Assembly (NCBI GenBank): GCA_016187125.1
Contig: JACPKF010000002.1
Location: 1,469-65,468 of the forward strand
Origin: Candidatus Saccharimonadota bacterium
GTDB lineage: Bacteria > Patescibacteriota > Saccharimonadia > Saccharimonadales > UBA10212
Reading direction: 5' to 3'
Length of the DNA stretch: 64,000 nt
The first letter of the stretch is position 1. The number at the start of each line of letters is the position of its first letter. The notes under the pieces were generated by a model. It worked only from the letters and a program-made list of their open reading frames with translations. It was not told the origin of the DNA and ran no database searches. The translations under genes and the position numbers were made by a program. Shown here piece by piece: positions 1,182-47,772 of the stretch.

Positions 1182-1672
1182 CCGGCTATTAACTCCAGAT
1201 CTGTGGCCTCAGCTTTGGCACCATCAGCCATGGTATACAGTTCAAGATAGAGAGTTTCGCCAGTTTTGGGACTTTTTTCCAAAATAATCTCAAAACTAAA
1301 AGCCTGGTTAGTCTTACTACTTGGAGTAATTTCCAGTGAATAATCAGTTAAGACCCCACTGCGCGAGCCTTTGACGATCACGTACAGCTTACCGTCGGAA
1401 CTTTGAGCGCTGCCGGCAATTTTCGTTCCATCCATCAGAATAGCGCCTTTTTTAGGAGCGGTAATCACTATCTTGGGACTGGCAACCAGCGGGCCGGGCG
1501 GCGGTATACTGCTGGAAGGTGGCACAGACTTTTCGGCATCGGATGACGAGCTATTGTTACTAACTGGGGGGCTGTTGTCTTGGCGGTTTAATAAAATAAT
1601 CGCGCCGCCGGCCGCCAGGCCAGCTAGGATAACTAAAATTAAGATTTTTCTGCGGTTCATCATCCAGTACAT
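1178..1672 (-). CDS. membrane-anchored protein with a Ser/Pro-rich linker, function unknown
   Basis: ORF track, 164 aa. N-terminal TM segment ILILVILAGLAAGGAIILL is followed by an SSSS/PPP linker and a beta-rich domain. It sits in the operon downstream of the ABC exporter genes. Confidence 0.6.
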   Translation of the reverse strand: MYWMMNRRKILILVILAGLAAGGAIILLNRQDNSPPVSNNSSSSDAEKSVPPSSSIPPPGPLVASPKIVITAPKKGAILMDGTKIAGSAQSSDGKLYVIVKGSRSGVLTDYSLEITPSSKTNQAFSFEIILEKSPKTGETLYLELYTMADGAKAEATDLELIAG

Positions 1673-1713: not shown

Positions 1714-2922
1714 CTAATCGGCTTGACTCCAGCTGCCACTGATATAAAACTCGCCGTTTTGGGTTGATGAGCCTTCCAATATTGTAATAATAGGTACCTT
1801 AATGTCGTAGCTTGTATCAAGTACATCAATCAGCTTGGAGGCGTGGTTATAGACAGCCGCATTTACAAAATAATCTCCCTTGGTTAGCTGGCCGGCTTTT
1901 AGGCGGCAGGTTATCCGGTTTTTACCTTCTTGAGGCTTAAACTGACCAAGGTCGGAAGTGGTATTAATACCGGCCAAATATCGGCCATCGGGACGAACTA
2001 AGAACAGATTAAACTGGACTGGCTCGTTTAAGTTATGGACTCTAAAATCGATATCTACCAAAATATCTTCGCCACGTTCAAAATGCGACGTGGCCTTTTT
2101 TGGCGAACGGGTCTTGAGGTTCAGAAGCTTGAGCGGCGGATTGAGCGGGCGAGATGATTTTGTAGGGCCGGTCTGAACAGACTGCTCAGAAGCTGAGTTG
2201 GCTACTTCATAACGCAGGGCTACTTCCCGGGGTTTACCTATTATCAACATGTGGGAATCGGCAATCATCATGGCCCGATCGCAATACTCCTGAACAGCCC
2301 CCATGTCATGGGTTACAAAAATCACCGTTTTGCCATGGTTTTTAATATCTTTAAAGACGCCGAAGCATTTGCGTTGAAAAGCGGCATCACCAACCGCTAG
2401 GACTTCGTCTATCAGCAAAATGTCGTTATGAGCTTGGATAGCGATTGAAAAAGCCAAGCGCACTTGCATACCGGATGAATAGTTTTTAAGTTTCTGATCC
2501 ATAAATTTTTGAAGTTCGGCAAAGGCTACTATCTCATGATATTTGGCCTTAACCTCTTTTCTGGTCAAACCAAGGATGGCGCCGTTAAGAAAAACGTTTT
2601 CGCGGCCGGTTAGTTCCGGATTAAAACCGATCCCTAGTTCTATAAATGGTGTTAGTGATCCATGAACCTGAACTCGTCCGCTGGTGGGCTGATAAATCCC
2701 GGCGATAATTTTCAAAAGAGTACTTTTGCCGCTACCATTGCGGCCAACAATGCCAAAAAATTCGCCTTTCTTAACTTCAAAGTTAATATCTGATAGTGCT
2801 TGCAGTCTTTCATAAGTTGGCCGTTTAAAATGGACTACCCATTCTTTGAGTGAATTCTTACGCTCATGCGGCAGCTTAAATTCTTTGTAGAGGTTTTTGA
2901 CTGATACGGCTATATCATCCAT
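1714..2922 (-). CDS. wzt: polysaccharide/teichoic-acid ABC exporter ATP-binding protein (Wzt/TagH type) with a C-terminal extension
   Basis: Walker A GRNGSGKST, ABC signature YSSGMQVRLAF and Walker B ILLIDEVLAVGD. About 150 aa follow the NBD, as in Wzt-type exporters. It is adjacent to an ABC-2 permease. Confidence 0.85.
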   Translation of the reverse strand: MDDIAVSVKNLYKEFKLPHERKNSLKEWVVHFKRPTYERLQALSDINFEVKKGEFFGIVGRNGSGKSTLLKIIAGIYQPTSGRVQVHGSLTPFIELGIGFNPELTGRENVFLNGAILGLTRKEVKAKYHEIVAFAELQKFMDQKLKNYSSGMQVRLAFSIAIQAHNDILLIDEVLAVGDAAFQRKCFGVFKDIKNHGKTVIFVTHDMGAVQEYCDRAMMIADSHMLIIGKPREVALRYEVANSASEQSVQTGPTKSSRPLNPPLKLLNLKTRSPKKATSHFERGEDILVDIDFRVHNLNEPVQFNLFLVRPDGRYLAGINTTSDLGQFKPQEGKNRITCRLKAGQLTKGDYFVNAAVYNHASKLIDVLDTSYDIKVPIITILEGSSTQNGEFYISGSWSQAD

Positions 2923-10370: not shown

Positions 10371-10880
10371 TCATTTTTGGTTACTTTTATCAATTTCAAC
10401 TGGTTTTAGGACGATGTGGCGTTCCAGGCCCTCTCCCACCGACTCCGTTTGCAGACCATAATCGGTGGCTGCTTGATGGATTATGCGCCGGTCAGCGGCG
10501 TTCATTGGTGATAAATCCTTAGACTTGCCGCTGCCTTGAACCTCTTTAAACCAGTCCTCGGCTTGCTGCAAAAGTCGCTGGGCTCGATGCTTCTTATAAT
10601 CAGCTACATCAACATTAACCCTGGTATGAGAAAAGTTTTGGCTTTTAAGAGCCGAGCTGATGGTGTACTGCAGAGCCCGCATTGTCTCCCCATGGGCGCC
10701 GATTAAAAAGCCGTTGAGGTGTGTTGAGGGCACATTAAGTTCAATTACCTCATGATCCTCGGTGGTGGCGTAAATGTCGGTGTTAAGCCCAAAAAACGAC
10801 AGCAGGTCTTCTAAATACTTTTTGGCATACAAGATCGCCTCTTCGATATCATTATTTGAGTTAGTGATATTGTCGCTCAT
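10371..10880 (-). CDS. jag: RNA-binding protein Jag/KhpB (KH + R3H domains)
   Basis: C-terminal R3H motif (NAADRRIIHQAATDYGL) and its position downstream of yidC. Confidence 0.8.
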   Translation of the reverse strand: MSDNITNSNNDIEEAILYAKKYLEDLLSFFGLNTDIYATTEDHEVIELNVPSTHLNGFLIGAHGETMRALQYTISSALKSQNFSHTRVNVDVADYKKHRAQRLLQQAEDWFKEVQGSGKSKDLSPMNAADRRIIHQAATDYGLQTESVGEGLERHIVLKPVEIDKSNQK

Positions 10881-10910
10881 GGGTAATAAATCCCTAGGCT
10901 TTCTTGCTCA

Positions 10911-10991
10911 GAGGTCTATCCTTGGTGAAAAAGAGGTAAAATTTAGTAATTTTTATAAAAAAATACTTTGCTTTCACCAAGGATAGACCTC
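10911..10991. repeat. 81-nt palindromic element P1 (perfect 20-bp arms, 41-nt AT-rich loop with promoter-like hexamers)
   Basis: The arms gaggtctatccttggtgaaa and tttcaccaaggatagacctc are exact reverse complements. It is homologous to the element at 12805..12886 and lies 30 nt upstream of the jag start. Confidence 0.8.
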
Positions 10992-11006
10992 CAACAACAA
11001 GTTGTG

Positions 11007-11921
11007 TCATCGTCTCTTCCTTTTATGATGACCCCGCTTAGCCGTTTTTTTACGAGGGGAGGCTTTGGAACCTAGTCTATCAGCATCAACAACTGGCGAG
11101 CTTGACATCACCGTTTCAGCTTCGGACACATCCTCTCGCAAAACCTTTGATTGCTGGATCAAGGCTACGAAGCTACTGGTTAACCAATAAAGCGGCAGGG
11201 CTACTGCAAAATTCAGTCCAACGACCAGCACGATAAAAGGTATAAAGATCAAAGTGCCTCGACCGACTGCGGCGCTAACCTCTTGCTGATCAGCTTGCTT
11301 GCCCTGCCCAGCCTCCTTGAGAATTGAGCGCAGACCCCGGCTGTCTTTAGCGGTTGGCATAAGTTGCTTGCTTTGGATGTATTGAACCAGGGCTGAGGCA
11401 GCTACAATAATAACTGCCGGCCAGTAGGTTCCCTTTGGCCCGCTGGCGGTGCGGCTCAAGTCTACCATCCCGAACAAAGTATTATCAAACTGATGAATAT
11501 TATGAGCCAGCGTATCAAGCCAACCAAAGTGCAAAAAAGAGTATGAAAAGTTTATGAGTTGGTTGGGGTCTTTAATGATTTTCTGCAAGCCGAAATATAA
11601 ACCAATTAGAATCGGTGCTTGTACAAGCGCTATACCGATGGTTGCCAGCGGATTGATTTCCCGCTCTTTATACAGTTCCATCGTCAGTTGTGACTCTTTG
11701 CGCCGATCACCTTTAGCCGCTAACTTAATTTTTCTGAGTTCCGGCATTAGTAATCGTATAGCCTTGGTGTGATGGAGCTGTTTTTTAACTAGCGGCCACA
11801 TTAGCAGCCGCACAACTATGGTGAAGATTATGATAGCCAGGCCAAAGTTATGGCCCGGCACTATGTTATAAATCAGCACCAGTAAATTAAAAATCGGTTG
11901 GACTATAAAGGTATCAAACAT
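11007..11921 (-). CDS. yidC: membrane protein insertase YidC
   Basis: Polytopic 304-aa protein (LMWPLVKKQ...MPELRKI...) with a basic C-terminal tail. The rnpA-yidC-jag synteny supports the call. Confidence 0.85.
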   Translation of the reverse strand: MFDTFIVQPIFNLLVLIYNIVPGHNFGLAIIIFTIVVRLLMWPLVKKQLHHTKAIRLLMPELRKIKLAAKGDRRKESQLTMELYKEREINPLATIGIALVQAPILIGLYFGLQKIIKDPNQLINFSYSFLHFGWLDTLAHNIHQFDNTLFGMVDLSRTASGPKGTYWPAVIIVAASALVQYIQSKQLMPTAKDSRGLRSILKEAGQGKQADQQEVSAAVGRGTLIFIPFIVLVVGLNFAVALPLYWLTSSFVALIQQSKVLREDVSEAETVMSSSPVVDADRLGSKASPRKKTAKRGHHKRKRR

Positions 11922-12122
11922 ATCAGCAACTTACCTCTTCCGAACTACTATATCACGCCAGAGGTACTTCCTTCCTTAACCTGGCGTTTTAGCAATTACC
12001 CACGCACCAGAAAGCCTCGAACTTTAGTTCGGGGCTGAATGCCAGTTCTGGCTTTTAAGTGCGGGGTTCCACGCTCCGAAAGCCGTAAGCCTGAAGCCAC
12101 GGACTTTAGTCCGTGGAGCGCT

Positions 12123-12485
12123 TCACTTTTTTATTCGTTTAGCTAGAACGCCGGCAGCAGACAGTTGTTTTTTTAGCTGGCTAGTTAGAGACTCGACAGG
12201 TTCATCAATAACACTGTCGTGAAAAACCGTTAACACGATATCGTAGGCTTTTAATATATCGTTTTCATTGGTACGCACAACCTCGTAAAGTCTCCGGCGT
12301 ATCCGGTTACGAGCCACCGCCGATTTATTGATCTTACGAGCTACTACTACTGCCAGTCGGTAACTATCCCGCTTGGGATTCTCTAAAACTTTTAGAGAAA
12401 ATGAAGGACCCCGCGTGGTTACACCATGCCTGTAAACATGACGCAAGCTGCCATAGTCATGAAACCGATGCTTCCTTGAAATCAT
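12123..12485 (-). CDS. rnpA: ribonuclease P protein component
   Basis: 120-aa basic protein located downstream of rpmH. Confidence 0.8.
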   Translation of the reverse strand: MISRKHRFHDYGSLRHVYRHGVTTRGPSFSLKVLENPKRDSYRLAVVVARKINKSAVARNRIRRRLYEVVRTNENDILKAYDIVLTVFHDSVIDEPVESLTSQLKKQLSAAGVLAKRIKK

Positions 12486-12642
12486 AAAGATATAGTAACT
12501 AGGAAATAGTAACTAGGAAATAGTATTAAAAAACTTCTGGTTCGAGGTCTTTGCATCCGGAAAATAGCCCGAGATGCGGATTCACTCCGCACCCGGTGCG
12601 ATAAGAAACCGCGAAGGGGTTTCTTATAAGGCGTAAGCCGCA

Positions 12643-12780
12643 TTAGTGCGTTAAACGCACTCGGCCTCTGGCTCGGCGTCGCTTCAAAACCTTACGGCCG
12701 GCTCGCGTGGCCATACGGGCAAAGAAACCATGCTCCCGGCTACGTTGACGCTTTTTGGGTTGGTAGGTTCTTTTTGGCAT
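12643..12780 (-). CDS. rpmH: 50S ribosomal protein L34
   Basis: Too short for the ORF track. My translation is [45 protein letters not shown], a classic L34 sequence. Confidence 0.9.
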
Positions 12781-12804
12781 GATCATACCTTAACATAGTT
12801 CTCT

Positions 12805-12886
12805 GAGGTCTGTCCTTGTAAAAAAGTTAAGTAAAATCTAGTGATTTTTACTAAAAAATACATTGTTTTTTACAAGGACAGACCTC
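12805..12886. repeat. 82-nt palindromic element P2 (perfect 21-bp arms, 40-nt loop), paralog of P1
   Basis: The arms gaggtctgtccttgtaaaaaa and ttttttacaaggacagacctc are exact reverse complements. It lies 25 nt upstream of the rpmH start, in the rpmH/dnaA divergent spacer. Confidence 0.8.
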
Positions 12887-12935
12887 CCAACCGGTACGTA
12901 GAATTCACAATAGTAAACCACAAATGAGAGGGAGT

Positions 12936-13134
12936 TTTCCACTTTTATCTAACTTTTGTCCACGTTTTTACAGATGAGCGGGCCGGCTGTGTACAACTTT
13001 TCCCTTCTGGGCGTTGGCTGGCTGGGTAGTATAGTAGTTTAGGCATAAGCTGTGGAAAAGCTCGCAATGATCAGCTATATTAAGAACTGCATTGTAAACA
13101 ACCAGGAAGAGTTGAAAGAGGGTTTTAGTCCACA
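12936..13134. other. candidate oriC part 1: DnaA-box cluster upstream of dnaA
   Basis: Boxes close to TTWTNCACA are TTTTCCACT (12936), TTGTACACA (rc of 12988..12996), a perfect TTTTCCACA (rc of 13051..13059) and TAGTCCACA (13126..13134). Confidence 0.55.
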
Positions 13135-14519
13135 TGCAGGAAAATACACTGTGGCAGGCTGTGCTAGGCGAGATTGAGCTTAGTGTTAGTAGAGGCAACT
13201 ATGTAACGTGGTTCAAAAATACCCAACTTATTCGCTATAAAGATGATGTTGCTGTGGTAGGTGTGCCAAACATTTTTGTTAAAAATCAGCTAGAGCGTAA
13301 ATTTAATGACTTAGTAGTTAATATACTTGCCAAAAATGGTATCCAGCCCTCAAGAGTCGAATACAAAATTCACTCCGGCATTGCGCCAACCACCAAACAC
13401 AACGACGAGGGTATTCTGAAAAACCCAGGCGCTATAACAGGTTTATCAGAGGTAAGCACAGGCCCTAAGTTGAGAATAGCTAATGTTACTCACTCTTACC
13501 GCCAAGGTTTAAACGACCGTTATAGTTTCGAGAATTTTGTTGTTGGCGCTGGTAATGAACTGGCCTACGCTGCTTGCCAAGCAATTGCCGGCAGCCCCGG
13601 TACTCGGTACAACCCTCTGTTCATATATGGAGGTGTAGGGATCGGTAAAACTCATTTAATTCAAGCTGTCGGCAGCGCTATTTTGGCAGCCAAACCAAAC
13701 GCTCGCATTATTTACGCTTCAACAGAACAATTTGTCCAAGAATTTGTGGATGCTCTGCGCTTTAAAAAAAATACTACTGATTTTGCTGGATTTTACCGCG
13801 GCGCCGACGTCTTAATTGTTGATGATGTACAGTTTTTGGCAGGCAAAGAAAGAGTTCAGGAAGAATTTTTTCATACTTTCAATGCTCTTTATCAAGCCAA
13901 CAAGCAAATTATTCTAACCAGCGACAAACCACCCAAGGAGATCCCAACCCTAGAGGAACGACTTAGATCGCGCTTTGCCTGGGGTATGTCTATAGATATG
14001 CAAACTCCGGATTTTGAAACCCGTTGCGCCATCCTGCAAAGTAAAGCTGCGATTCAAAACATAAATTTATCCCAGGCCGTAACTGAGCTTTTGGCAACCC
14101 ATATCCACAGTAATATTCGTGAACTAGAGGGAGCTCTAAACCAACTGTTGGCTTACTGCGAAATGAGAGGTGTCGAGCCAGATATTCAGGTTGCAACCGC
14201 CATGTTTGAGAATGTAAAAAACCGGCCAAAACACATTAACGCTCGCCAAATTATTGAAAGAACTGCTAAACATTTTCATGTTTCTATGGAGGATATTTTA
14301 GGACCAAAGCGAGATAAAGATATAGTAGTCCCCCGTCAAATTGCCATGTATATGCTCAGGTGTGAGTTGCATTTGTCTTTTCCCAAAATTGCTCACGAGC
14401 TTGGCCGCAAAGACCACACCACCGCCATTCACTCTATTAATAAGATCGAGAAGGAAACCGGTTTAGACGGCCCCATCAAGCAATATGTCAGTGAGTTGAA
14501 GGAGAAATTATATGTTTAA
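13134..14519 (+). CDS. dnaA: chromosomal replication initiator protein DnaA
   Basis: Walker A GGVGIGKTHL, then VDDVQFL, and a C-terminal DNA-binding helix region (HTTAIHSINKIE). Confidence 0.95.
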   Translation: MQENTLWQAVLGEIELSVSRGNYVTWFKNTQLIRYKDDVAVVGVPNIFVKNQLERKFNDLVVNILAKNGIQPSRVEYKIHSGIAPTTKHNDEGILKNPGAITGLSEVSTGPKLRIANVTHSYRQGLNDRYSFENFVVGAGNELAYAACQAIAGSPGTRYNPLFIYGGVGIGKTHLIQAVGSAILAAKPNARIIYASTEQFVQEFVDALRFKKNTTDFAGFYRGADVLIVDDVQFLAGKERVQEEFFHTFNALYQANKQIILTSDKPPKEIPTLEERLRSRFAWGMSIDMQTPDFETRCAILQSKAAIQNINLSQAVTELLATHIHSNIRELEGALNQLLAYCEMRGVEPDIQVATAMFENVKNRPKHINARQIIERTAKHFHVSMEDILGPKRDKDIVVPRQIAMYMLRCELHLSFPKIAHELGRKDHTTAIHSINKIEKETGLDGPIKQYVSELKEKLYV

Positions 14520-41025: not shown

Positions 41026-41115
41026 TGGCGGAGAGAGTGGGATTCGAACCCACGATACCGTTGCCGGCACACCAGTTTTCAAGACTAGCGCCTTCAACCA
41101 CTCGGCCATCTCTCC
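41026..41115 (-). tRNA. tRNA-Ser (anticodon TGA), CCA encoded
   Basis: Folded by hand: acceptor GGAGAGA/TCTCTCC, anticodon loop CTTGAAA, long variable arm, T-arm GTGGG-TTCGAAT-CCCAC. Confidence 0.85.
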
Positions 41116-41198
41116 GCCATCGATTATACCAGTGAGCCTAAAAACAGAGGTTATTTGTTATTATGTATTAGCTATTCTAGAAAAGCGTAGCGATACCC

Positions 41199-41250
41199 AA
41201 TTTTGCAAAATCGTGCTTAGCAGATGTTTGCAAAATTGAAGAGGAGGAAG
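41199..41250 (+). promoter_or_regulatory. conserved hairpin leader motif, copy 1 (upstream of tRNA-Ser GCT)
   Basis: aattttgcaa-N19-ttgcaaaatt followed by gaagaggagg. Related copies lie at 42396..42447 and 47662..47710. Confidence 0.6.
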
Positions 41251-41314
41251 TGACCCGAGATTGAAAGTAAGCAAGCTTTACGCGCTTACGGAAACCGAGT
41301 GTCGATTCCGACGA

Positions 41315-41407
41315 GGAGAGGTACCCAAGTGGTTGAAGGGGACGGTTTGCTAAATCGTTAGGGGTGCGCAAGTGCCCGCGAGAGTTCGAATCTCTCCCTC
41401 TCCGCCA
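41315..41407 (+). tRNA. tRNA-Ser (anticodon GCT), CCA encoded
   Basis: Hand-folded: acceptor GGAGAGG/CCTCTCC, anticodon loop TTGCTAA, long variable arm, T-arm GAGAG-TTCGAAT-CTCTC. Confidence 0.85.
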
Positions 41408-41669
41408 GCTTAAGTCGTGACTCCAGCTTCCGTAAAACAGCGGAAGCTGTTTTACTTCCAGCTTACTCGTGCCTTTAAGCTACGCCCCATGAAGAATCCT
41501 CTTTTCGCAGGGACCCCTTAACACCCCGATATCTCGGTGTGTTTTGTTGAGACTGCGCTACAATAAACATAAGCATGAATCCCGTTAGACCCCAAAAGAC
41601 TCACAAGCATCGTATGTCGGTTGAATCTCGGCATAGTTTATCAATCGTTAACCAGCAACAGAAGGTTAA

Positions 41670-42257
41670 GTGGGGTCTAACGGGATGAATGATGACGAAA
41701 ATGGGTCTTGGGATTATAAACCCGACGGCCAAAATGTTTCCAAGCAGCCGGAGCTGCCCAGCACCAAGTCTGGAAAAACTCATCGTAGGCAGCCAGAACT
41801 AAAGCCGGTTAGTTGGACAGCTTCGGAATACATTGACCATAGCCGGGGGCCGGTTTGGTATATTTTACTAAGTTTCATCACCGTGTTACTAGCCGCTGCA
41901 GTTTATTTTCTTACCAAAGATCGTTTTGCAACTGGCCTGGTTGCAGTTGTTGGCATAATTGTAGCTGTTTATAGCCTAAAAAAACCTCAACAACTTACAT
42001 ATGAGCTATCTGAGTCCGGCTTGAGGGCCGGTGAGAAGGTCTACACCTACAGACTTTTTAAATCGTTTGCCATTATCCATGAAGGCGCTCTGTCCAGCAT
42101 AACTTTTCTGCCCATCAAAAAATTTATGCCGCCACTTAGTATCTTTTTTGACGCAGCGGACGAAGAAAAAATAGTCAAAATTCTTGGTCAGCACCTGCCC
42201 TACGAGCAGCGAGGACTGGACAGCATGGATCGTCTTACCCGTCGCCTCCGCTTCTAA
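41670..42257 (+). CDS. membrane protein with two TM segments and a C-terminal ~90-aa domain (bacterial PH-like?), function unknown
   Basis: 195-aa ORF; the likely start is the ATG at 41685. TM pair VWYILLSFITVLLAAAVYFL / GLVAVVGIIVAVYSL. Confidence 0.55.
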   Translation: MGSNGMNDDENGSWDYKPDGQNVSKQPELPSTKSGKTHRRQPELKPVSWTASEYIDHSRGPVWYILLSFITVLLAAAVYFLTKDRFATGLVAVVGIIVAVYSLKKPQQLTYELSESGLRAGEKVYTYRLFKSFAIIHEGALSSITFLPIKKFMPPLSIFFDAADEEKIVKILGQHLPYEQRGLDSMDRLTRRLRF

Positions 42258-42395
42258 GTAATGAGACAAAACCAATGGTTTTTTCTCATCAGACCTGACG
42301 AAATGAATTCGTCTCCGCTAATAGCGGATCGGTCCGGCTCTTTTTCCTCTATACATCTTAAAGCCCTAAATGGTAAAATAACCCCTGTTCTTACC

Positions 42396-42447
42396 AATTT
42401 TACAAGATCGTGCTTTAGCAGATTCTTGCAAAATTGAGAGGAGGAAG
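42396..42447 (+). promoter_or_regulatory. conserved hairpin leader motif, copy 2 (upstream of tRNA-Arg)
   Basis: aattttacaag-N18-cttgcaaaatt followed by gagaggagg. Confidence 0.6.
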
Positions 42448-42507
42448 CAACCAAAGGCTGAAGATAATTTGTTATCTGACAAATTAAGGAAGCCAGTCCG
42501 TCGATTC

Positions 42508-42695
42508 CGACCCGTTCGACAAGCTCAGGGTCGTCCTGAGTGAAATCGAATGGACGACGAGCACCCGTAGCTCCCGCCTACGCCACCCCCTTCGTTATCT
42601 CCTTCGCTGAAGCTACGAAGATCAAGGAAGCTTCCTCCTTCGCAAATGCTTCGGAGAACAAATCGGAGGTCAAGAAGGCTTCGGCGGGCAGGCAG
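42508..42695. repeat. composite of two dispersed repeat families in the tRNA-Arg leader
   Basis: 42508..42562 resembles 7125..7181 and 49957..50013. 42581..42695 is ~90% identical over shared blocks to 55939..56029 inside murE. Confidence 0.7.
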
Positions 42696-42719
42696 CTGGA
42701 TCGCCCTAGCACTTATCAA

Positions 42720-42794
42720 GTCCCCATAGTTTAATGGATAGAACACTGGCTTGCGGAGCCGGCGATAGAGGTTCGAATCCTCTTGGGGGCACCA
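42720..42794 (+). tRNA. tRNA-Arg with genomically encoded GCG anticodon, CCA encoded
   Basis: Hand-folded: acceptor GTCCCCA/TGGGGGC, anticodon stem CTGGC/GCCGG, loop TTGCGGA, T-arm AGAGG-TTCGAAT-CCTCT. Confidence 0.7.
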
Positions 42795-42885
42795 AAATCG
42801 GTCACATTAAGGAGAGTCGTACCATAAGGTTTGGGTCTGATGATGAGGCCGGGGATTCTCATATATCCCTAAAGGGTACATTTTA

Positions 42886-43164
42886 GTGAAAGAAATCTTA
42901 AAGCAGACTTTAATACTGGCTTACGCTGGAGTTGGCGTTGTCGGGCTTATTGCCTATTGGCCAACTATCAAAGACTTGTATCACCATCAAAAACCGAGTG
43001 CTAATGTATCTTCATATGCGATATGGACGGCAACTTCTGGTACTGGGTTTCTGTATAGCTTATTTATTCTCCCCGATTTGCTTTTTAGGATTGTGTCAGG
43101 GATTAACTTTGGAGCCTGCGCCTTGGTACCCTTTTTGAGTATCAGACTCAAGAATAATCGTTAA
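42886..43164 (+). CDS. small 3-TM membrane protein (PQ-loop/SemiSWEET-like?)
   Basis: 92 aa with three hydrophobic segments. The family assignment is a weak guess based on size and topology. Confidence 0.4.
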   Translation: MKEILKQTLILAYAGVGVVGLIAYWPTIKDLYHHQKPSANVSSYAIWTATSGTGFLYSLFILPDLLFRIVSGINFGACALVPFLSIRLKNNR

Positions 43165-43303
43165 AATATTATTCTAACCTTAAGTACTTGTAAATCTGGT
43201 TTACCGCGCCGGATAAATTTTTTTGACTCGTCTAACATCGGTTTGGCCCATTTACTAATTTTGTTAGAGCAAGACTAAGCTTACAAATCTATCCTCCGAG
43301 TTG

Positions 43304-43756
43304 TTACGTATCTGGAAATGGAGGGTACGTAACGTCCATAAGCCCGTCAGGAGCGGGGAGAGTCGTAAAAGGTTGTACCAAATGAATAAGTCTGTGGTCG
43401 CCGAGAGTGCGAGCTTGTCCGTTAGTCACTCCGCCGCTTAGAGGAACCACGGTTATCTCATCCGGGTTAGTTGGATCTTCATGGATTTCTATTACAAACC
43501 CGGGTAATATCCCCCGAGGATCGTAGTGGGTGGAATCATACATCACCCATGGTCGCAATAATCCTGGAACTAAGGTTCCTGAAGAGGGATCTATCACGTC
43601 CACTTCATGTCCTGGGGCAACTTCTACTTCCTCGGGCACTACAACTTTTTCCCGAGGATATACAACTTCGGCTTCTCCAAGAGAATCTAGAAATGCTTGC
43701 GACTCTGGCGGTAATTGCCAACCCCGGCTACGGTCTTCCACTTTTTTATTTGCCAT
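43304..43756 (-). CDS. hypothetical protein
   Basis: 150-aa ORF with no recognisable motif. Confidence 0.45.
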   Translation of the reverse strand: MANKKVEDRSRGWQLPPESQAFLDSLGEAEVVYPREKVVVPEEVEVAPGHEVDVIDPSSGTLVPGLLRPWVMYDSTHYDPRGILPGFVIEIHEDPTNPDEITVVPLSGGVTNGQARTLGDHRLIHLVQPFTTLPAPDGLMDVTYPPFPDT

Positions 43757-44020
43757 AAATACTCTTCTTTATTTATATCATTAAAAATTATTTATCAAGC
43801 TCTAGTTTAGCATCATTCTAAAAAAAAGTCAATCAGCTATCCCTGAACCTCAAAACCTCCGTCAAAGTCCATCGCCCAAGGTACAACTCATCCGTTGTTT
43901 ACAAGTTGTTTACAAGGAGCCTCCTTGTAAACGGCAAAAATATTGTCTAATAAATTATGTTTTGAGATTCAGGTAGCTATGGCTTAAATAAGAACTCTGA
44001 ATTGGTATTATAGAAAATGC

Positions 44021-45232
44021 ATGTTAAAAAGCGCTCACAATTTGGTTAAAAGTGTTGGTAAAAAGCTGAAGCTTGACGATGCGACCGTAGAAAAGCTTCT
44101 GAAGGCGGACGCGGAGCACCAGTTTGAAATTAGTTTGAAAAGTGGGAAGCAGTTTAAGGCTTACCGTGTCCAGCATAGCAATAAACTAGGCCCCTATAAA
44201 GGCGGAATCAGATTCCATCCTCGGGTGAATCTGGATGAAATAAGAACTCTGGCAACTTTAATGAGTCTTAAAACTGCCGCTGTGGGGCTGCCGCTTGGTG
44301 GCAGCAAAGGCGGCGTGACGGTGGATCCAAAGGTACTTACTCAAGACGAACTCGAGGAACTAAGTCGTAAGTATGTACAGCACCTGCAATCTCATATAGG
44401 ACCGGCTAAAGACGTCCCTGCTCCTGATGTAAATACCAATGCCCAAATCATGGATTGGATGATTGACGAATACCAAAATCTGACTGGCAACCTGAGCCAG
44501 GCTAGTTTTACCGGTAAAAGTCTGACTAGTGGCGGCAGTGAAGGCCGTGATGAAGCCACCGGCCGCGGCGGCGTAATTGCCCTGCGCGAACTCCTTATGC
44601 TACAAGGATTATCCTTGCAGCATAAGGGGGATCAGGTATTGCGTTTTGCCGTTCAGGGATTTGGCAATGTGGGTTCGAATTTTGCAATCGTCGCTGAGCA
44701 GGAGCAGCCCAACTGGAAGTTAATTGCCGCCAGTGATTCTGGTGCCACTATTTTTGACTCAGAAGGACTTAGTGCCTCTAGTCTGGCGGCCTTTAAAAAA
44801 CAAGCTGGCCGCTTTAGCCAGTACAAAAATGCTCAAGTCCTAAACAGTGACGCAATATTGTTCCTGGAAGTTGATGTTTTGGTCCTAGCGGCCCTGGAGG
44901 ATGCCATAACAAATAAGAACATGCAGCAGGTTAAGGCCCGACTTATCGTTGAGCTAGCCAATGGGCCGATTAACGAAACCGCCTATGGTTACTTGGCCAA
45001 AAAAGGCATAACTGTTTTACCGGACATTATCACCAATGCCGGAGGCGTTATTGTAAGTTATTTGGAGTGGCTACAAAATAAGGCTGATGAGCGTTGGACG
45101 CGCGCCAAAGTTAACACCGAGCTAGAACAGTACATGATTAAAGCCATAAGCGAGGTTTATAAAACTTCTAGTTCACAAAATCTGACACTCAAAGAAGCGG
45201 CAATTATGCTAGCTCTCAAACGCCTGACTTAA
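44021..45232 (+). CDS. gdh: Glu/Leu/Phe/Val dehydrogenase family (glutamate dehydrogenase-like)
   Basis: Catalytic region KGGIRFHP...LPLGGSKGG and the Rossmann motif AVQGFGNVG. Confidence 0.85.
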   Translation: MLKSAHNLVKSVGKKLKLDDATVEKLLKADAEHQFEISLKSGKQFKAYRVQHSNKLGPYKGGIRFHPRVNLDEIRTLATLMSLKTAAVGLPLGGSKGGVTVDPKVLTQDELEELSRKYVQHLQSHIGPAKDVPAPDVNTNAQIMDWMIDEYQNLTGNLSQASFTGKSLTSGGSEGRDEATGRGGVIALRELLMLQGLSLQHKGDQVLRFAVQGFGNVGSNFAIVAEQEQPNWKLIAASDSGATIFDSEGLSASSLAAFKKQAGRFSQYKNAQVLNSDAILFLEVDVLVLAALEDAITNKNMQQVKARLIVELANGPINETAYGYLAKKGITVLPDIITNAGGVIVSYLEWLQNKADERWTRAKVNTELEQYMIKAISEVYKTSSSQNLTLKEAAIMLALKRLT

Positions 45233-45393
45233 ACAATGTTCGATGTCTCATAGAATAAGGCGAGACCAAAAGCAATGCAGTATTGCTATTTATTTGCTAC
45301 AAGGATAATCCTTGTAGCAAATCTTGTAGCAAATAAATAGTCTCTAGACTACTGACGGAGAGTGCTTTTACAGTTAATAAATTTAGTAGTCTG

Positions 45394-46530
45394 TTATTGG
45401 ATGATGATCTTTTTCGTAGGCTTCTTTTTTGGCTTTGGGGCTGGAGCCCGTGGTATAGTCTCTGGTTTCGTGACAGCCGCGGGAGTCTCAACCGGTTGCT
45501 CTTTATCCGAGGTTGGCTCGGAACGTTGCGACTTCCCTTTGCCTAAAACCATCGGACCAGCAATGGCTAAGACACCCAGAGCAGCATATGTACCGCCAAA
45601 AATATAGTAAGTTTTGTTTATGTTAGCTATGATGTCGGCGGCCAAGGTTGTTATTGTTTCCTGCATAGCCTTATTCTCTATCTTCAGCTGCGGCAGTAGC
45701 TTTTTATTAACACCCCAGTTCAGGGTGTAGGCCGAGATTAGTAAGAAGACGCCAATGGTAGTAAGTGTGACGCCTAAACGGCGCAATCCCCGTGTCCGGC
45801 TGGCGCTCAGGAAGATTATGCCAAGGGCGGTTAACAGACTCAAAAGTGCCAAATAAAGCGGTGTCTTTTTAACCTGCTGATAATAGTTTGGTACGTCTTT
45901 TAGCTGGTCGGCAAAAACCGATTGGCTAGAGCCTGATAACTTAACAATGTCGGCTGTGATAACCGGGTCTTTTAAGAAGCCCTCGCTGCTGCTCAAGCTG
46001 TTTCGTATTTGCTCGGCTACGCTGGCTGGCGTTGTACCTTTGGGCAAACAAGTGGCGCTGAACGGTTCATATGAATCGGCGCTGCCAGATAATCCCGCCG
46101 GACAAGCAGGCAGCGTAGCGGCCCGGGCCTGAGCTGCCTTGGCGGTTTCGGTGGCAAAGGTCTCTTTGAGTCCGGATAAGTCAAGCTTAAAGTCAGGCAC
46201 CTTTGTCTTACCATCCAGCCATAAAAAGACACTATCTAGTACTTTTTCGGTGTTTTCCTGCAAAAACTGGGGTGTAAAAGTTTTTTCGGCTACCGCTTTA
46301 ATGTTTGGATCGGTCAGAGAGATTCCTTCACCTTCCCCACCAGAAGTCTTAACCTGATCCAGGGTACTGGAGATTAGGGAATTATAAATGTCGCTGTCAG
46401 ACAGAAACTTTTTTATATTCCCAGAGCTGCCGGCCGTGCGGATAATACCGGTGTCTATAGCCAGCGTAAACAAAAAAAGCGGCAATATAAGCGCCAAAAA
46501 AAACACTAAAGTCTTCCGCACAAAACGCAT
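45394..46530 (-). CDS. membrane protein, function unknown
   Basis: 378 aa with an N-terminal TM segment, C-terminal TM segments and a Lys/Pro-rich tail. Confidence 0.55.
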   Translation of the reverse strand: MRFVRKTLVFFLALILPLFLFTLAIDTGIIRTAGSSGNIKKFLSDSDIYNSLISSTLDQVKTSGGEGEGISLTDPNIKAVAEKTFTPQFLQENTEKVLDSVFLWLDGKTKVPDFKLDLSGLKETFATETAKAAQARAATLPACPAGLSGSADSYEPFSATCLPKGTTPASVAEQIRNSLSSSEGFLKDPVITADIVKLSGSSQSVFADQLKDVPNYYQQVKKTPLYLALLSLLTALGIIFLSASRTRGLRRLGVTLTTIGVFLLISAYTLNWGVNKKLLPQLKIENKAMQETITTLAADIIANINKTYYIFGGTYAALGVLAIAGPMVLGKGKSQRSEPTSDKEQPVETPAAVTKPETIPRAPAPKPKKKPTKKIIIQ

Positions 46531-46531
46531 A

Positions 46532-46658
46532 CCTAGTAGTAGACTTTCTGTTTGGCTATCGCCAAGCTCTTAATAACTACGCCTATCTTGAACCGAGTAT
46601 GAGATTTTATCTCATCCACTGTTGTACTGCGAAGCAGTACAGAAAGCTTACTACTAGG
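46532..46658 (-). ncRNA. candidate structured 5' leader (20-bp outer stem enclosing three hairpins) abutting the start codon of the 378-aa gene
   Basis: cctagtagtagactttctgt (46532..46551) pairs with acagaaagcttactactagg (46639..46658) at 18 of 20 positions. Inner hairpins are atgagat-ttt-atctcat, tgtactgc-gaa-gcagtaca and ttggc-tatc-gccaa. Confidence 0.4.
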
Positions 46659-46752
46659 CATAAGCGTTATTGTAAGCTATTAATTCTAGCTATGCCAGAG
46701 TAACGGTACTGACTCTCAAAAATTCCGGCCGGGCTGGGTCCAACGTAACTTT

Positions 46753-47532
46753 TTACCAATCGTGTTGATTGTTGGGTATATTCCAGTATTTTGTTTGGGC
46801 AGCATAATTCGTCAACCAGTCTATTTGCCACTGTGGGGCACCAATTTCAGTTAGTGCATCAGCTTGTATTGCTATACACTCCAGCTCAGCTTTTTCGCCA
46901 AAAAACACATCCTCTGGCACCACTTGGCCTGGATGTTCTTTCTCGTACTTACGATACTGCAATGCATGGTTACCATCATGGACCATTGTGCTTGCAAACC
47001 AAGCCGTGCCCGCTTCAAACAGCCTATCGCTAGCAAAAAATCTAGGCGGTGTTTTTTCTACTTGTATACTCGATCCACTTTTTACGCGTAATATTATTCC
47101 CATATTATCAACAACCATTTTAAAATAGTCGGGCGCTTTAGATTGCAACAGATCAAGTGCTGCTTTGGTTTGTTCAATAAAATTATCATTACCAATGATT
47201 TTTATTTCGCCGACAGGACTTTTGTAAATTTCAGTATATACCGCATTTATCTCCTCCCGCATGAATTTACTGGGGCGATTGGCCACTAAACTAAGAGGAT
47301 GATTGGGTTTAGGTCCGCCCTTGTTTATTAATGGTGCATTCGGACCACCTTCAAATATTCTGGCGTGAGCCACTTGAGTCTGATTAGGCCCACCCATAAG
47401 CGTAATAGTAGCAACACCACTGCCCGCAGCCGCGAGTACTTTGTGACCAAGGCCTCCTAATTTGCGTTTCTTTTTTTCTGGTGCTGGGTGTTTTTCTGAC
47501 ATTTTCAATGCTTTCAGTATTGAATATAACAC
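46753..47532 (-). CDS. hypothetical secreted or anchored protein
   Basis: 259 aa with a basic N-terminus and a hydrophobic segment. Confidence 0.5.
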   Translation of the reverse strand: MLYSILKALKMSEKHPAPEKKKRKLGGLGHKVLAAAGSGVATITLMGGPNQTQVAHARIFEGGPNAPLINKGGPKPNHPLSLVANRPSKFMREEINAVYTEIYKSPVGEIKIIGNDNFIEQTKAALDLLQSKAPDYFKMVVDNMGIILRVKSGSSIQVEKTPPRFFASDRLFEAGTAWFASTMVHDGNHALQYRKYEKEHPGQVVPEDVFFGEKAELECIAIQADALTEIGAPQWQIDWLTNYAAQTKYWNIPNNQHDW

Positions 47533-47553
47533 AGGTAGCTTAAAAAGTCAAAT

Positions 47554-47641
47554 TGGCGGAGAGGGAGAGATTCGAACTCTCGGTACCTTGCGGCACACTG
47601 CTTTTCGAGAGCAGCGCCTTCAACCACTCGGCCACCTCTCC
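47554..47641 (-). tRNA. tRNA-Ser (anticodon CGA), CCA encoded
   Basis: Hand-folded: acceptor GGAGAGG/CCTCTCC, anticodon loop CTCGAAA, long variable arm, T-arm GAGAG-TTCGAAT-CTCTC. Confidence 0.85.
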
Positions 47642-47661
47642 GCGTCGTCCGCCTAGGCGGA

Positions 47662-47710
47662 CTCCCTTTCAATTTTGTAAGAGTCTACTACGCACGACCC
47701 TACAAAATCG
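47662..47710 (-). promoter_or_regulatory. conserved hairpin leader motif, copy 3 (upstream of tRNA-Ser CGA)
   Basis: Minus strand reads attttgtagg-N18-cttacaaaat followed by tgaaagggag. The stem keeps pairing through compensatory changes relative to copy 1. Confidence 0.6.
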
Positions 47711-47772
47711 GGAAGACTAAGAAACAGAGGTAATTATACCCCGATTAAGACAGTTTTTGATATCATGGACTT

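Follow-up and report, generated by a model that had tools for sequence, protein, structure and literature searches.

Bacterial tRNA precursors usually carry short, unconserved leaders, which are considered to be low in information. A stretch of 64,000 nt from a Candidatus Saccharimonadota bacterium (GenBank assembly GCA_016187125.1, contig JACPKF010000002.1, positions 1,469 to 65,468 of the forward strand), referred to below as the window, raises the question of what a conserved hairpin is doing in front of such genes. The window holds four tRNA genes, as called by ARAGORN and Rfam, and the same motif lies upstream of three of them on the tRNA strand. The GDH, GroEL and DnaA proteins that it encodes are identical to the NCBI records MBI2589020.1, MBI2589033.1 and MBI2588992.1, respectively. 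These copies had been noticed in a preliminary description of the DNA made from its sequence alone. They lie where that description placed them, the hairpin (HP1) being found at 41198-41238 (+), 42395-42436 (+) and 47670-47710 (-).

The motif is the first part of a leader of about 120 nt, which is arranged as follows: an extended -10 promoter, HP1, a purine linker, a second hairpin (HP2), a tail GACGN and tRNA position +1. This leader constitutes a well-supported RNA family, absent from Rfam 15 and from the literature searched, with about 50 distinct members and two covariance models. The link of such a conserved structured leader (or co-transcribed repeat) to the boundaries of tRNA and transfer-messenger RNA (tmRNA) genes is unusual and strict.

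A leader family before tRNA and tmRNA genes

A 40-nt degenerate pattern of the motif matches window copies 1 and 3 exactly and has no matches in 100 shuffles; copy 2 escapes it because of one extra T in its loop. One genome per species was scanned with the pattern TTTT-N6-TCGTGC-N1-2-TAG-N-AGA-N7-AAAA, which gave 11 loci. Nine of these belong to metagenome-assembled genomes of Saccharibacteria or Patescibacteria, and in eight of the nine a same-strand tRNA gene is directly downstream of the motif. In the ninth (L007; loci are cited by such numbers), the motif stands upstream of a sequence beginning GGGGCTGATTTCAGC at the contig end. L007 and L058 have identical leaders, and the gene downstream in L058 is tmRNA according to Rfam. 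The two remaining matches, in an alphaproteobacterium (L002) and a member of Bacteroidetes (L010), have no tRNA nearby and were taken as chance, about two such matches being expected. A slightly looser pattern yielded 48 further loci on metagenome contigs from soil, rhizosphere, sediment and groundwater. Viral contigs scanned with the motif pattern gave no matches.

The covariance model of the HP1 hairpin (R1), built from 12 copies, detects the three copies in the window at 67-75 bits (E about 1e-15 to 1e-17) and no other strong match there. Within the loci from the pattern scans it recovered additional, more diverged copies. The full-length leader is described by a second model (R2). When copies of at least 40 bits were regarded as strong and duplicates were removed before counting, public genomes and metagenomes provided 52 distinct strong copies, all of them from Saccharibacteria/Patescibacteria. 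Forty-two are located upstream of a same-strand tRNA gene and three upstream of tmRNA (Rfam RF00023, 79-94 bits), three are at contig ends, and four are exceptions. Among the 49 copies with enough downstream sequence, 45 are thus directly upstream of a tRNA or tmRNA gene on the same strand. The preliminary description had proposed a leader signal before tRNA genes, with a hairpin maintained by compensatory changes. The enrichment is borne out by these counts, and the covariation holds in the enlarged alignments considered below. The motif had also been called unfamiliar, and this is still the case. In the window and about 390 kb of loci compared with Rfam (gathering and E-value thresholds), no family matches the leader and only tRNA and tmRNA models score, and no description of such a tRNA leader was found in the literature searched. 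The former label of a stable-RNA motif is right as regards the downstream tRNA and tmRNA genes and for the present too broad otherwise, as the DNA fetched contained no gene for rRNA, RNase P RNA, signal recognition particle RNA or 6S RNA.

The tRNAs provided with the leader span 21 anticodon species. In nearly all copies of the long form, HP1 as delimited by R1 ends 60-64 nt before tRNA +1. This distance is 14-18 nt in the short form (window copy 3, L001, L048 and L016), and it reaches 111 and 269 nt where material has been inserted, in L009/L039 and in window copy 2. The minimal form, in L013, consists of HP1 followed only by ACGAG and then by the tRNA. Weaker R1 matches before Phe, Leu(CAG) and Asp tRNAs turned out to be complete leaders by the full-length model. 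In the co-transcribed tRNA pairs Cys-Leu, Leu-Val and His-Pro, the leader is present before the first gene only, i.e., there is one copy per transcription unit. Every complete tRNA or tmRNA gene in the window and in the Saccharibacteria loci encodes its 3' CCA.

Structure and folded strand of the leader

HP1 had been described as a stem of 9-10 bp, and it is in fact a hairpin of 18 bp. Its 12-bp stem is invariant at the foot (CAAUUUUG/CAAAAUUG) and covaries in the middle; above it come a single bulged base in the 3' strand, three pairs, a bulged G, three further pairs (UGC/GCA) and a loop of 3-4 nt. The linker has the consensus UGARAGGAG with an invariant AGGA core. The GGAG(G) tract noted earlier is indeed conserved; it is partly paired with TTCC near the tRNA, and no conserved start codon follows it. 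A leader peptide was rejected on the latter ground, the short GTG frame of copy 1 being unique to that copy. HP2 is an irregular hairpin of about 21 bp. The closing helix at its base, GGAA/UUCC, is separated by a 1x1 loop from CGAC/GUCG, beyond which C faces C in a conserved opposition before two more pairs follow. Higher up, a small loop and GGCU/AGCC lead to an internal loop of purines (GGAA/GGA), which is topped by an upper stem of 6-7 bp with a variable loop. The string gtcgattccgac, reported as shared by copies 1 and 2 closer to the tRNA, is real, but it represents the tail together with the 3' strand of HP2. HP2 also has a second variant (GCCGAAGCUUUUG...CAAAACGAGGC) with the outline of the first, and both occur in one genome, UBA6824, which carries L005 and L006. 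In the short forms a mini hairpin takes the place of HP2, and the minimal form has no HP2. The final five bases of the leader, GACGN, reach position -1 in 30 aligned leaders and stay unpaired both in the consensus and in the minimum-energy folds. A small hairpin GTCGATTCCGAC was considered as a third stem and rejected, since the long-range helix GGAA.CGAC/GTCG.TTCC is preferred, covaries and holds in the second variant. A K-turn reading of the GGAA/GGA loop was also dropped, its strand pattern being off the consensus as judged by eye.

The structure was assessed in alignments of 37 long-form leaders (A3) and of 30 leaders of the commonest variant (A4). In A4, 96.3% of 1123 cells form standard pairs under the specified structure, and 18 of the 38 pairs are changed on both sides (93 cells). 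Pairing, the count of double changes and the covariation score were reached by none of 500 shuffles, and moving the 3' partners by 1-3 columns lowers pairing to 28-43%. Several pairs show three Watson-Crick types, such as columns 13-32 (AU 14, GC 9, UA 6); columns 85-98 contain CG 16, UA 9 and UG 3. HP1 has compensatory double changes at five pairs, with three different Watson-Crick pairs at two. These counts refer to cells and not to independent events, the copies being related; the qualitative result, a structure under selection, is clear despite this. RNAalifold independently recovers the helices of HP1 and HP2. Minimum-energy folds of single leaders agree with the consensus at z values of -3.3 to -6.1, with -54 kcal/mol (z = -6.1) for L058, and HP1 of each window copy folds at -14 to -21 kcal/mol (z -2.3 to -3.8). 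G.U and U.G cells number 54 versus 15 for A.C and C.A, and the tRNA-sense strand is therefore the folded one. Together with the compensatory changes, this bias indicates a folded single strand rather than a duplex DNA site.

In a scan run without a shuffle control, 42 of 49 distinct copies have their best -10-like hexamer at a distance of 8-27 nt before HP1. The boxes often read TGnTATAAT, TAAAAT or TAGAAT and are frequently followed by ACCCCTGTTCT. Since they are upstream of HP1, the hairpin falls inside the predicted transcript, with HP1 expected 2-19 nt from the 5' end. The terminator scan called no site in the three window leaders, where HP1 is followed by GARAGGAG and HP2 by GACGN, which speaks against an intrinsic terminator or attenuator. 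A self-cleaving ribozyme was rejected as well: no Rfam ribozyme matches, and a generic leader cannot pair with each tRNA as a 5' hammerhead would need.

Copy 1 (+) has the weakest promoter of the three window copies. Its candidate -10 box, TGtTATTAT with the hexamer at 41159..41164, is the best one found by the same scan and lies 32 nt upstream of HP1. HP1 (41198..41238) has the tip UCGUGC-UUA-GCAGA and scores 74.8 bits with R1, its minimum-energy fold being the consensus. It is followed by the linker AAGAGGA (41239..41245), the AGGA columns of which are invariant in A3 and A4, and by HP2 (41246..41309) with the GGAA...TTCC closing helix, internal loops and a GTAAGC/GCTTAC upper stem. HP2 is supported by covariation, and the full model gives 125 bits. 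The tail GACGA (41310..41314) ends at position -1 of tRNA-Ser(GCT) (41315..41407), in which CCA is encoded. A 3' trailer module beginning with GCTTAAGTCGT occupies 41408..41489, and the same trailer follows the Gly tRNA of L003, the Ala tRNA of L008 and the Met tRNA of L026. According to the terminator scan, it contains a terminator-like hairpin at 41424-41449 with TTTTAC behind it. The reverse complement of the trailer resembles HP2, with a partial R2 match of 20.9 bits at 41412-41475 (-).

Copy 2 (+) has the extended -10 box TGgTAAAAT (42371..42379) followed by AACCCCTGTT, and the promoter scan reads TATACA-18-TAAAAT with TG. Its HP1 (42395..42436; 73.1 bits) contains one A.C mismatch in the stem and a 4-nt loop. 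HP2 (42443..42508) is recognized by its fold and by the full model, which gives 99.9 bits over 42394-42516. The preliminary description had noted an insert of about 190 nt between motif and tRNA. The insert is present, but its length is about 208 nt (42512..42719) and it is located after the complete leader, as alignment with the ortholog L050 with its normal 63-nt spacing indicates. It holds a second GACGAG, a tRNA-5'-like fragment (CACCCGTAGCTCC) and short repeats of the CTTCG type, and is followed by tRNA-Arg(GCG) (42720..42794).

In copy 3 (-), promoter scans find a TATAAT box (47733..47738) followed by TACCTCTGTT. HP1 (47670..47710; 67.4 bits) has GUAGG/CUUAC arms, which are compensatory relative to copy 1. 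The remainder of this short form (47642..47669) consists of the linker AAAGGGAG, a mini hairpin TCCGCC-TA-GGCGGA (47648-47661) and the tail CGACGC; it directly precedes tRNA-Ser(CGA) (47554..47641) and recurs before tRNA-His in L001 and L048. The fourth tRNA gene, tRNA-Ser(TGA) (41026-41115, -), serves as a leaderless comparison. It has its own TGGTATAAT box (41121-41129) 5 nt from +1.

A signature of tRNA promoters, a -10 box followed by (A/T)ACCYCTGTT, was observed independently of the leader. Its three exact matches in the window (41143-41154, -; 42378-42389, +; 47723-47734, -) are all beside tRNA genes, and with at most one mismatch there are 8 matches versus 2.25 expected. It is also present at L008, L011, L014, L046 and others. 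At leaderless tRNAs (window Ser(TGA), L011 Pro and Gly), it is found 5-16 nt from +1. The signature may represent a lineage-specific discriminator or start region of stable-RNA promoters.

A portable module

A given leader is almost always most similar to leaders found before other tRNAs. The tmRNA leader of L058 is closest to those of Ala L029, Pro L046 and Arg L006 (identity 0.90-0.91), the Met leader of L017 is closest to that of Cys L030 (0.93), and the two copies in L003 have a unique HP2 tip in common. Leaders of the same tRNA species are on average hardly more alike (identity 0.69) than those of different species (0.68). A tRNA-specific specifier in the HP2 loop was rejected, since identical loops precede Arg, Ala and Met tRNAs and tmRNA. 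The leader is therefore generic, its sequence not tracking tRNA identity. Across genomes one and the same tRNA (His, Pro(TGG), Ala(CGC), Cys) carries the first variant, the second variant, the short form or no leader at all. The module is portable: it is exchanged or re-acquired among tRNA loci and is not inherited with each tRNA.

Scars are seen at some loci. In L009, the leader is followed by the first 27 nt of a tRNA-Ala and then by a different, intact tRNA-Ala; in window copy 2, the complete leader and the 208 nt with the tRNA-5'-like fragment precede tRNA-Arg(GCG). The latter tRNA (42720-42794) and its counterpart in L050 (1933-2009) have quite different bodies at syntenic loci (Ser-Ser, an open reading frame (ORF), Arg), with gene orientations differing between the window and L050. 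This suggests a tRNA replacement inside a retained leader context. Complete leaders without a recognisable downstream RNA occur in L034 and L036. In L034, an FtsB-like ORF with its own TATAAT is downstream of the leader. In L036 (723-960), the leader is followed by about 230 nt of non-coding DNA with two strong hairpins and no Rfam match, which could be a small RNA or a decayed gene.

Other observations concern the surroundings of such units. At L011 2494-2600, L023 about 2700-2818 (-), L044 from 5247 and L041 about 1400-1519 (-), a second conserved trailer family is found after tRNAs for Gly(TCC), Gly(GCC) and Met; it reads CGTCAC...ATCAACCCCG, then an inner hairpin whose arms are AATTTT..AAAATT, and finally GGGGTCTTGTATTGT. 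Its inner hairpin has the foot sequence of HP1 and a different tip. At L011 about 2290-2418, tRNA-Gly(TCC) is preceded by a leader of about 130 nt behind TGGTATAATTACCCCTGTT, which has the usual GGACCGCAAGTTCCGACGAG end and another first hairpin instead of HP1; long structured leaders may thus be more diverse than the HP1 family. Partial tRNA matches (Rfam, model positions 7-64; 41-49 bits), not called by ARAGORN, were found at L001 6734-6794, L048 9666-9726 and L059 1208-1268. The one in L048 ends ...GGGGTACCA directly before the TATAAT box of the tRNA-His leader.

Proposed RNase P removal and rival explanations

The preferred reading is that of a transcribed, portable leader module, which would be removed by RNase P and would act on the primary transcript. 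Its overall chances are put at about even; the structural and leader part is held with high confidence, and the specific function, in the stability or processing of the precursor, is proposed tentatively. The module would be transcribed from the extended -10 promoter once per transcription unit and would fold by itself, thus avoiding interference with the tRNA. RNase P would then cut it off in one piece at GACGN|+1. Before this cleavage the leader would act in cis as a protein-recognised stem-loop near the 5' end of the primary transcript, setting the lifetime of the precursor and its presentation for processing. A protein partner is suggested by the invariant foot and tip of HP1 combined with its covarying middle. 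In bacteria, RNase P takes off any sequence in front of +1 of tRNAs and tmRNA. The leader directly abuts +1, and the tail before it is single-stranded with A at -4; such an unpaired 5-nt tail would suit RNase P. RnpA is encoded in the window at 12123-12485 (-; PF00825, 63 bits) beside yidC, jag and dnaA, and the gene for RNase P RNA is not found in the window. RNase P RNAs are diverged or unusual in the candidate phyla radiation, and the paper reporting this mentions no leaders (PMC8172020). The region 10371-14519 of the window comprises jag/khpB (R3H and KH domains), yidC and rnpA (-), then dnaA (+). This is the classical order of an origin region, and the window therefore adjoins a likely replication origin.

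Several observations weigh against a cis-acting leader. Many tRNA units in the same DNA have no leader and a promoter 5-16 nt from +1, so the leader is dispensable for tRNA production, and its presence differs among orthologous tRNAs of related genomes. In L049 and L015, full leaders abut the 3' CCA end of an opposite-strand tRNA-Thr(CGT). The inverse leader of L049 has a TTGATATAAT box and the junction ...GACG|TGGA-GCCGATA, so that the same GACGN end faces the tRNA, and the module of L015 lies between Thr and Gly(CCC) tRNAs that are 17 nt apart in L006. Besides their normal leader, window Ser(GCT), L003 Gly, L008 Ala and L026 Met carry an inverted leader-like trailer in the order CCA|GCTTAAGTCGT, terminator-like hairpin and HP1-like hairpin. 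When its reverse complement is compared with the full leader model, this trailer obtains 64-69 bits, and 21 bits in the partial copy of the window. A function as a cis leader explains neither the inverse copies at CCA ends nor the inverted trailers. The predicted unpaired tail before HP1 is often 7-19 nt, which is long for a classical 5'-end protector, and the transcription start sites themselves are deduced from the -10 boxes. Some folds contain a helix between this 5' tail and the linker that is not clearly better than with shuffled tails of matched composition (p = 0.06); this helix of pyrimidine tail and purine linker is more stable than the far-upstream control (p = 0.0002).

The leader resembles in some respects 5' stabiliser leaders, rRNA leaders and dispersed palindromic repeats, and it does not clearly show the defining features of any of them. 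Known 5' stabilisers of Gram-positive mRNAs are the aprE leader, with a stem-loop and a ribosome-binding site, and STAB-SD of cryIIIA. They share with the tRNA leader an untranslated leader with a stem-loop near the 5' end (the predicted one in the tRNA leader) and a purine tract of the Shine-Dalgarno type (GARAGGAGG), present once per transcript. However, the tRNA leader precedes tRNA and tmRNA instead of mRNA and has many copies per genome. Its AGGAGG tract is conserved, but GGAA pairs with UUCC, with covariation, and the tract is absent in the minimal form of L013; its predicted 5' tails are often longer than a protector allows. T-boxes precede genes of aminoacyl-tRNA synthetases and amino acids and carry a specifier loop, the T-box sequence and a terminator/antiterminator. 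They are likewise structured leader RNAs tied to tRNA biology, but in the present leader these hallmarks are missing, Rfam gives no match, and the downstream genes are tRNAs and tmRNA. Leaders of rRNA operons have the order boxB-boxA-boxC, and their leader-trailer helix is cut by RNase III. Similarity to them consists in a structured leader on a stable-RNA precursor, which would be discarded in maturation, and in the four loci with a possibly pairing inverted module. Unlike in rRNA operons, tRNA or tmRNA is downstream, most units have no trailer partner, and no boxA-like string was found by direct reading of the aligned leaders A3 and A4.

Dispersed palindromic families co-transcribed with genes include REP/BIME, the pneumococcal BOX, the Correia elements of Neisseria and elements derived from IS200/IS605. 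The leader is comparable to them as a multi-copy, modular hairpin element (long, short and minimal forms) which is exchanged among loci, occurs in both orientations and has scarred copies. Its dispersal is REP-like, with three copies in 64 kb, up to three per fetched contig and inverse copies at tRNA 3' ends. It differs by the fixed position and phase relative to tRNA +1 or CCA and by the sense bias behind a promoter. The left flank is pyrimidine-rich (TGGTCT, TGTTCT, in some CTTAC) with no fixed tetranucleotide. Terminal inverted repeats and target-site duplications, the hallmarks of miniature inverted-repeat transposable elements (MITEs), were not found at the leader borders; both are present at a 104-bp insertion at 41581-41684 of the window. 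This MITE-like insertion, unrelated to the leader, has 13-bp terminal inverted repeats (CCCGTTAGACCCC / GGGGTCTAACGGG) and is flanked by duplicated ATGAAT (41575-41580 and 41685-41690). It is situated exactly at the start codon of an ORF continuing ATGAATGATGACG, and the L050 ortholog of the interrupted ORF (ATGAACGACGATAAC...) is without it. In compact genomes, mobile elements such as Ty3 and Dictyostelium TRE target tRNA genes and likewise use their boundary as a harmless landing place; they are eukaryotic protein-coding retroelements guided by the Pol III machinery, in contrast to a bacterial non-coding in-transcript module of 120 nt (PMC5006619).

A site acting at the DNA level, i.e., a promoter element or the operator of a dimeric repressor controlling stable-RNA transcription, is very improbable. 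The invariant foot (CAATTTTG/CAAAATTG) and repeat centre would agree with it, a place just downstream of the promoter would suit a roadblock repressor, and the 3' arm contains a TG-N-AAAATT string resembling an extended -10 box. However, the HP1 arms cannot act as -35 and -10 boxes because they are spaced by 22-24 nt (16-18 nt for sigma-70), and better -10 boxes are located upstream; a promoter inside the motif was rejected for these reasons. Compensatory double changes at five HP1 pairs would be needless in duplex DNA, the preference of G.U over A.C is a strand-specific signal, and the second hairpin covaries too. The preliminary suggestion of a promoter or operator is thus not retained. It is also quite unlikely that HP1 and HP2, each of about two helical turns, serve as sites for the RNase III family which cut tRNAs from primary or read-through transcripts, or that the inverted trailer modules pair with the leader in a stalk, as in rRNA precursors. 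The length of both hairpins (18-21 bp) and their conserved bulges and internal loops would agree with this, and the four tRNAs mentioned above are flanked by a leader and an inverted trailer with an HP1-like hairpin; but the trailer partner is found in only about 4 of 45 units, a terminator-like hairpin precedes the HP1-like one in these, and RNase P by itself suffices to free the 5' end. A role in trans is no more probable. RNase P would release a stable two-hairpin RNA of about 125 nt with a 5' triphosphate from about 20 loci per genome, e.g., as a sponge for a protein or as an RNA binding ribosomes or an RNase, and its supply would follow tRNA synthesis. The invariance of the HP1 tip, foot and linker AGGA next to covarying stem middles is what a recognition surface typically shows, the leader does not depend on which tRNA follows, and the folds are very stable, down to -54 kcal/mol. 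No single released species is conserved, however, because the short and minimal forms are without HP2 (that of L013 also without the linker). This explanation has no known target or partner and leaves the inverse copies unexplained.

More weight is given to a selfish non-coding element, MITE-like or a palindrome derived from IS200/IS605, landing exactly at tRNA and tmRNA boundaries, although this too is considered somewhat unlikely. Its harmlessness would follow from its erasure from the RNA, by RNase P before the tRNA and by trailer trimming after it. The hairpins would be kept because mobility as single-stranded DNA requires them, or else to spare the tRNA the damage done by an unfolded leader. 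Such an origin would account for the GACGN end facing the tRNA body at +1 and, inverted, at the CCA end (L049, L015), as well as for the module of L015 between Thr and Gly genes that are close together in L006. It would also agree with the differences in presence and module variants at orthologous tRNAs, with nearest neighbours being leaders of other tRNAs, with the scars containing tRNA fragments (L009, window copy 2) and with the copies lacking any tRNA (L034, L036). Insertion behind short native leaders that already existed would fit the varying interval between the -10 box and HP1, and the window has at least one unrelated MITE-like insertion. On the other hand, terminal inverted repeats, a duplicated target and a conserved target tetranucleotide are all missing from the left border of the leader, and in about 400 kb none of the copies is accompanied by a transposase. 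Copies within one genome are old, those of the window differing substantially instead of being near-identical as after a recent burst. The element is retained at tmRNA and other loci across several species, while genomes of about 0.7-1 Mb usually lose useless DNA. There is also a strong sense, promoter-proximal bias (45 sense versus about 6 inverse copies). A selfish element explains the inverse copies, turnover and scars better than a cis leader does, and the long retention, old divergent copies, borderless ends and sense bias less well. It is unlikely, although conceivable, that the leader propagates itself with the tRNA maturation enzymes as its excision system, the GACGN end facing the tRNA; the lineage may later have adopted such an element as the usual promoter-proximal leader of its tRNA units.

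Whichever of these readings is adopted, a conserved, covarying structure of about 120 nt, longer than the tRNA that it precedes, is kept before many tRNA units and tmRNA in genomes of less than 1 Mb. The leader family follows a clear genomic rule and can enter annotation pipelines. If it is selfish, it would represent a new hiding route for a bacterial element, with tRNA processing removing it, and a bacterial counterpart of the safe-haven targeting of tRNA genes by eukaryotic retroelements. If it acts in cis, as in the preferred reading of a transcribed leader removed by RNase P, it would point, in the production of tRNA and tmRNA, to a control or quality step peculiar to a lineage of the candidate phyla radiation.

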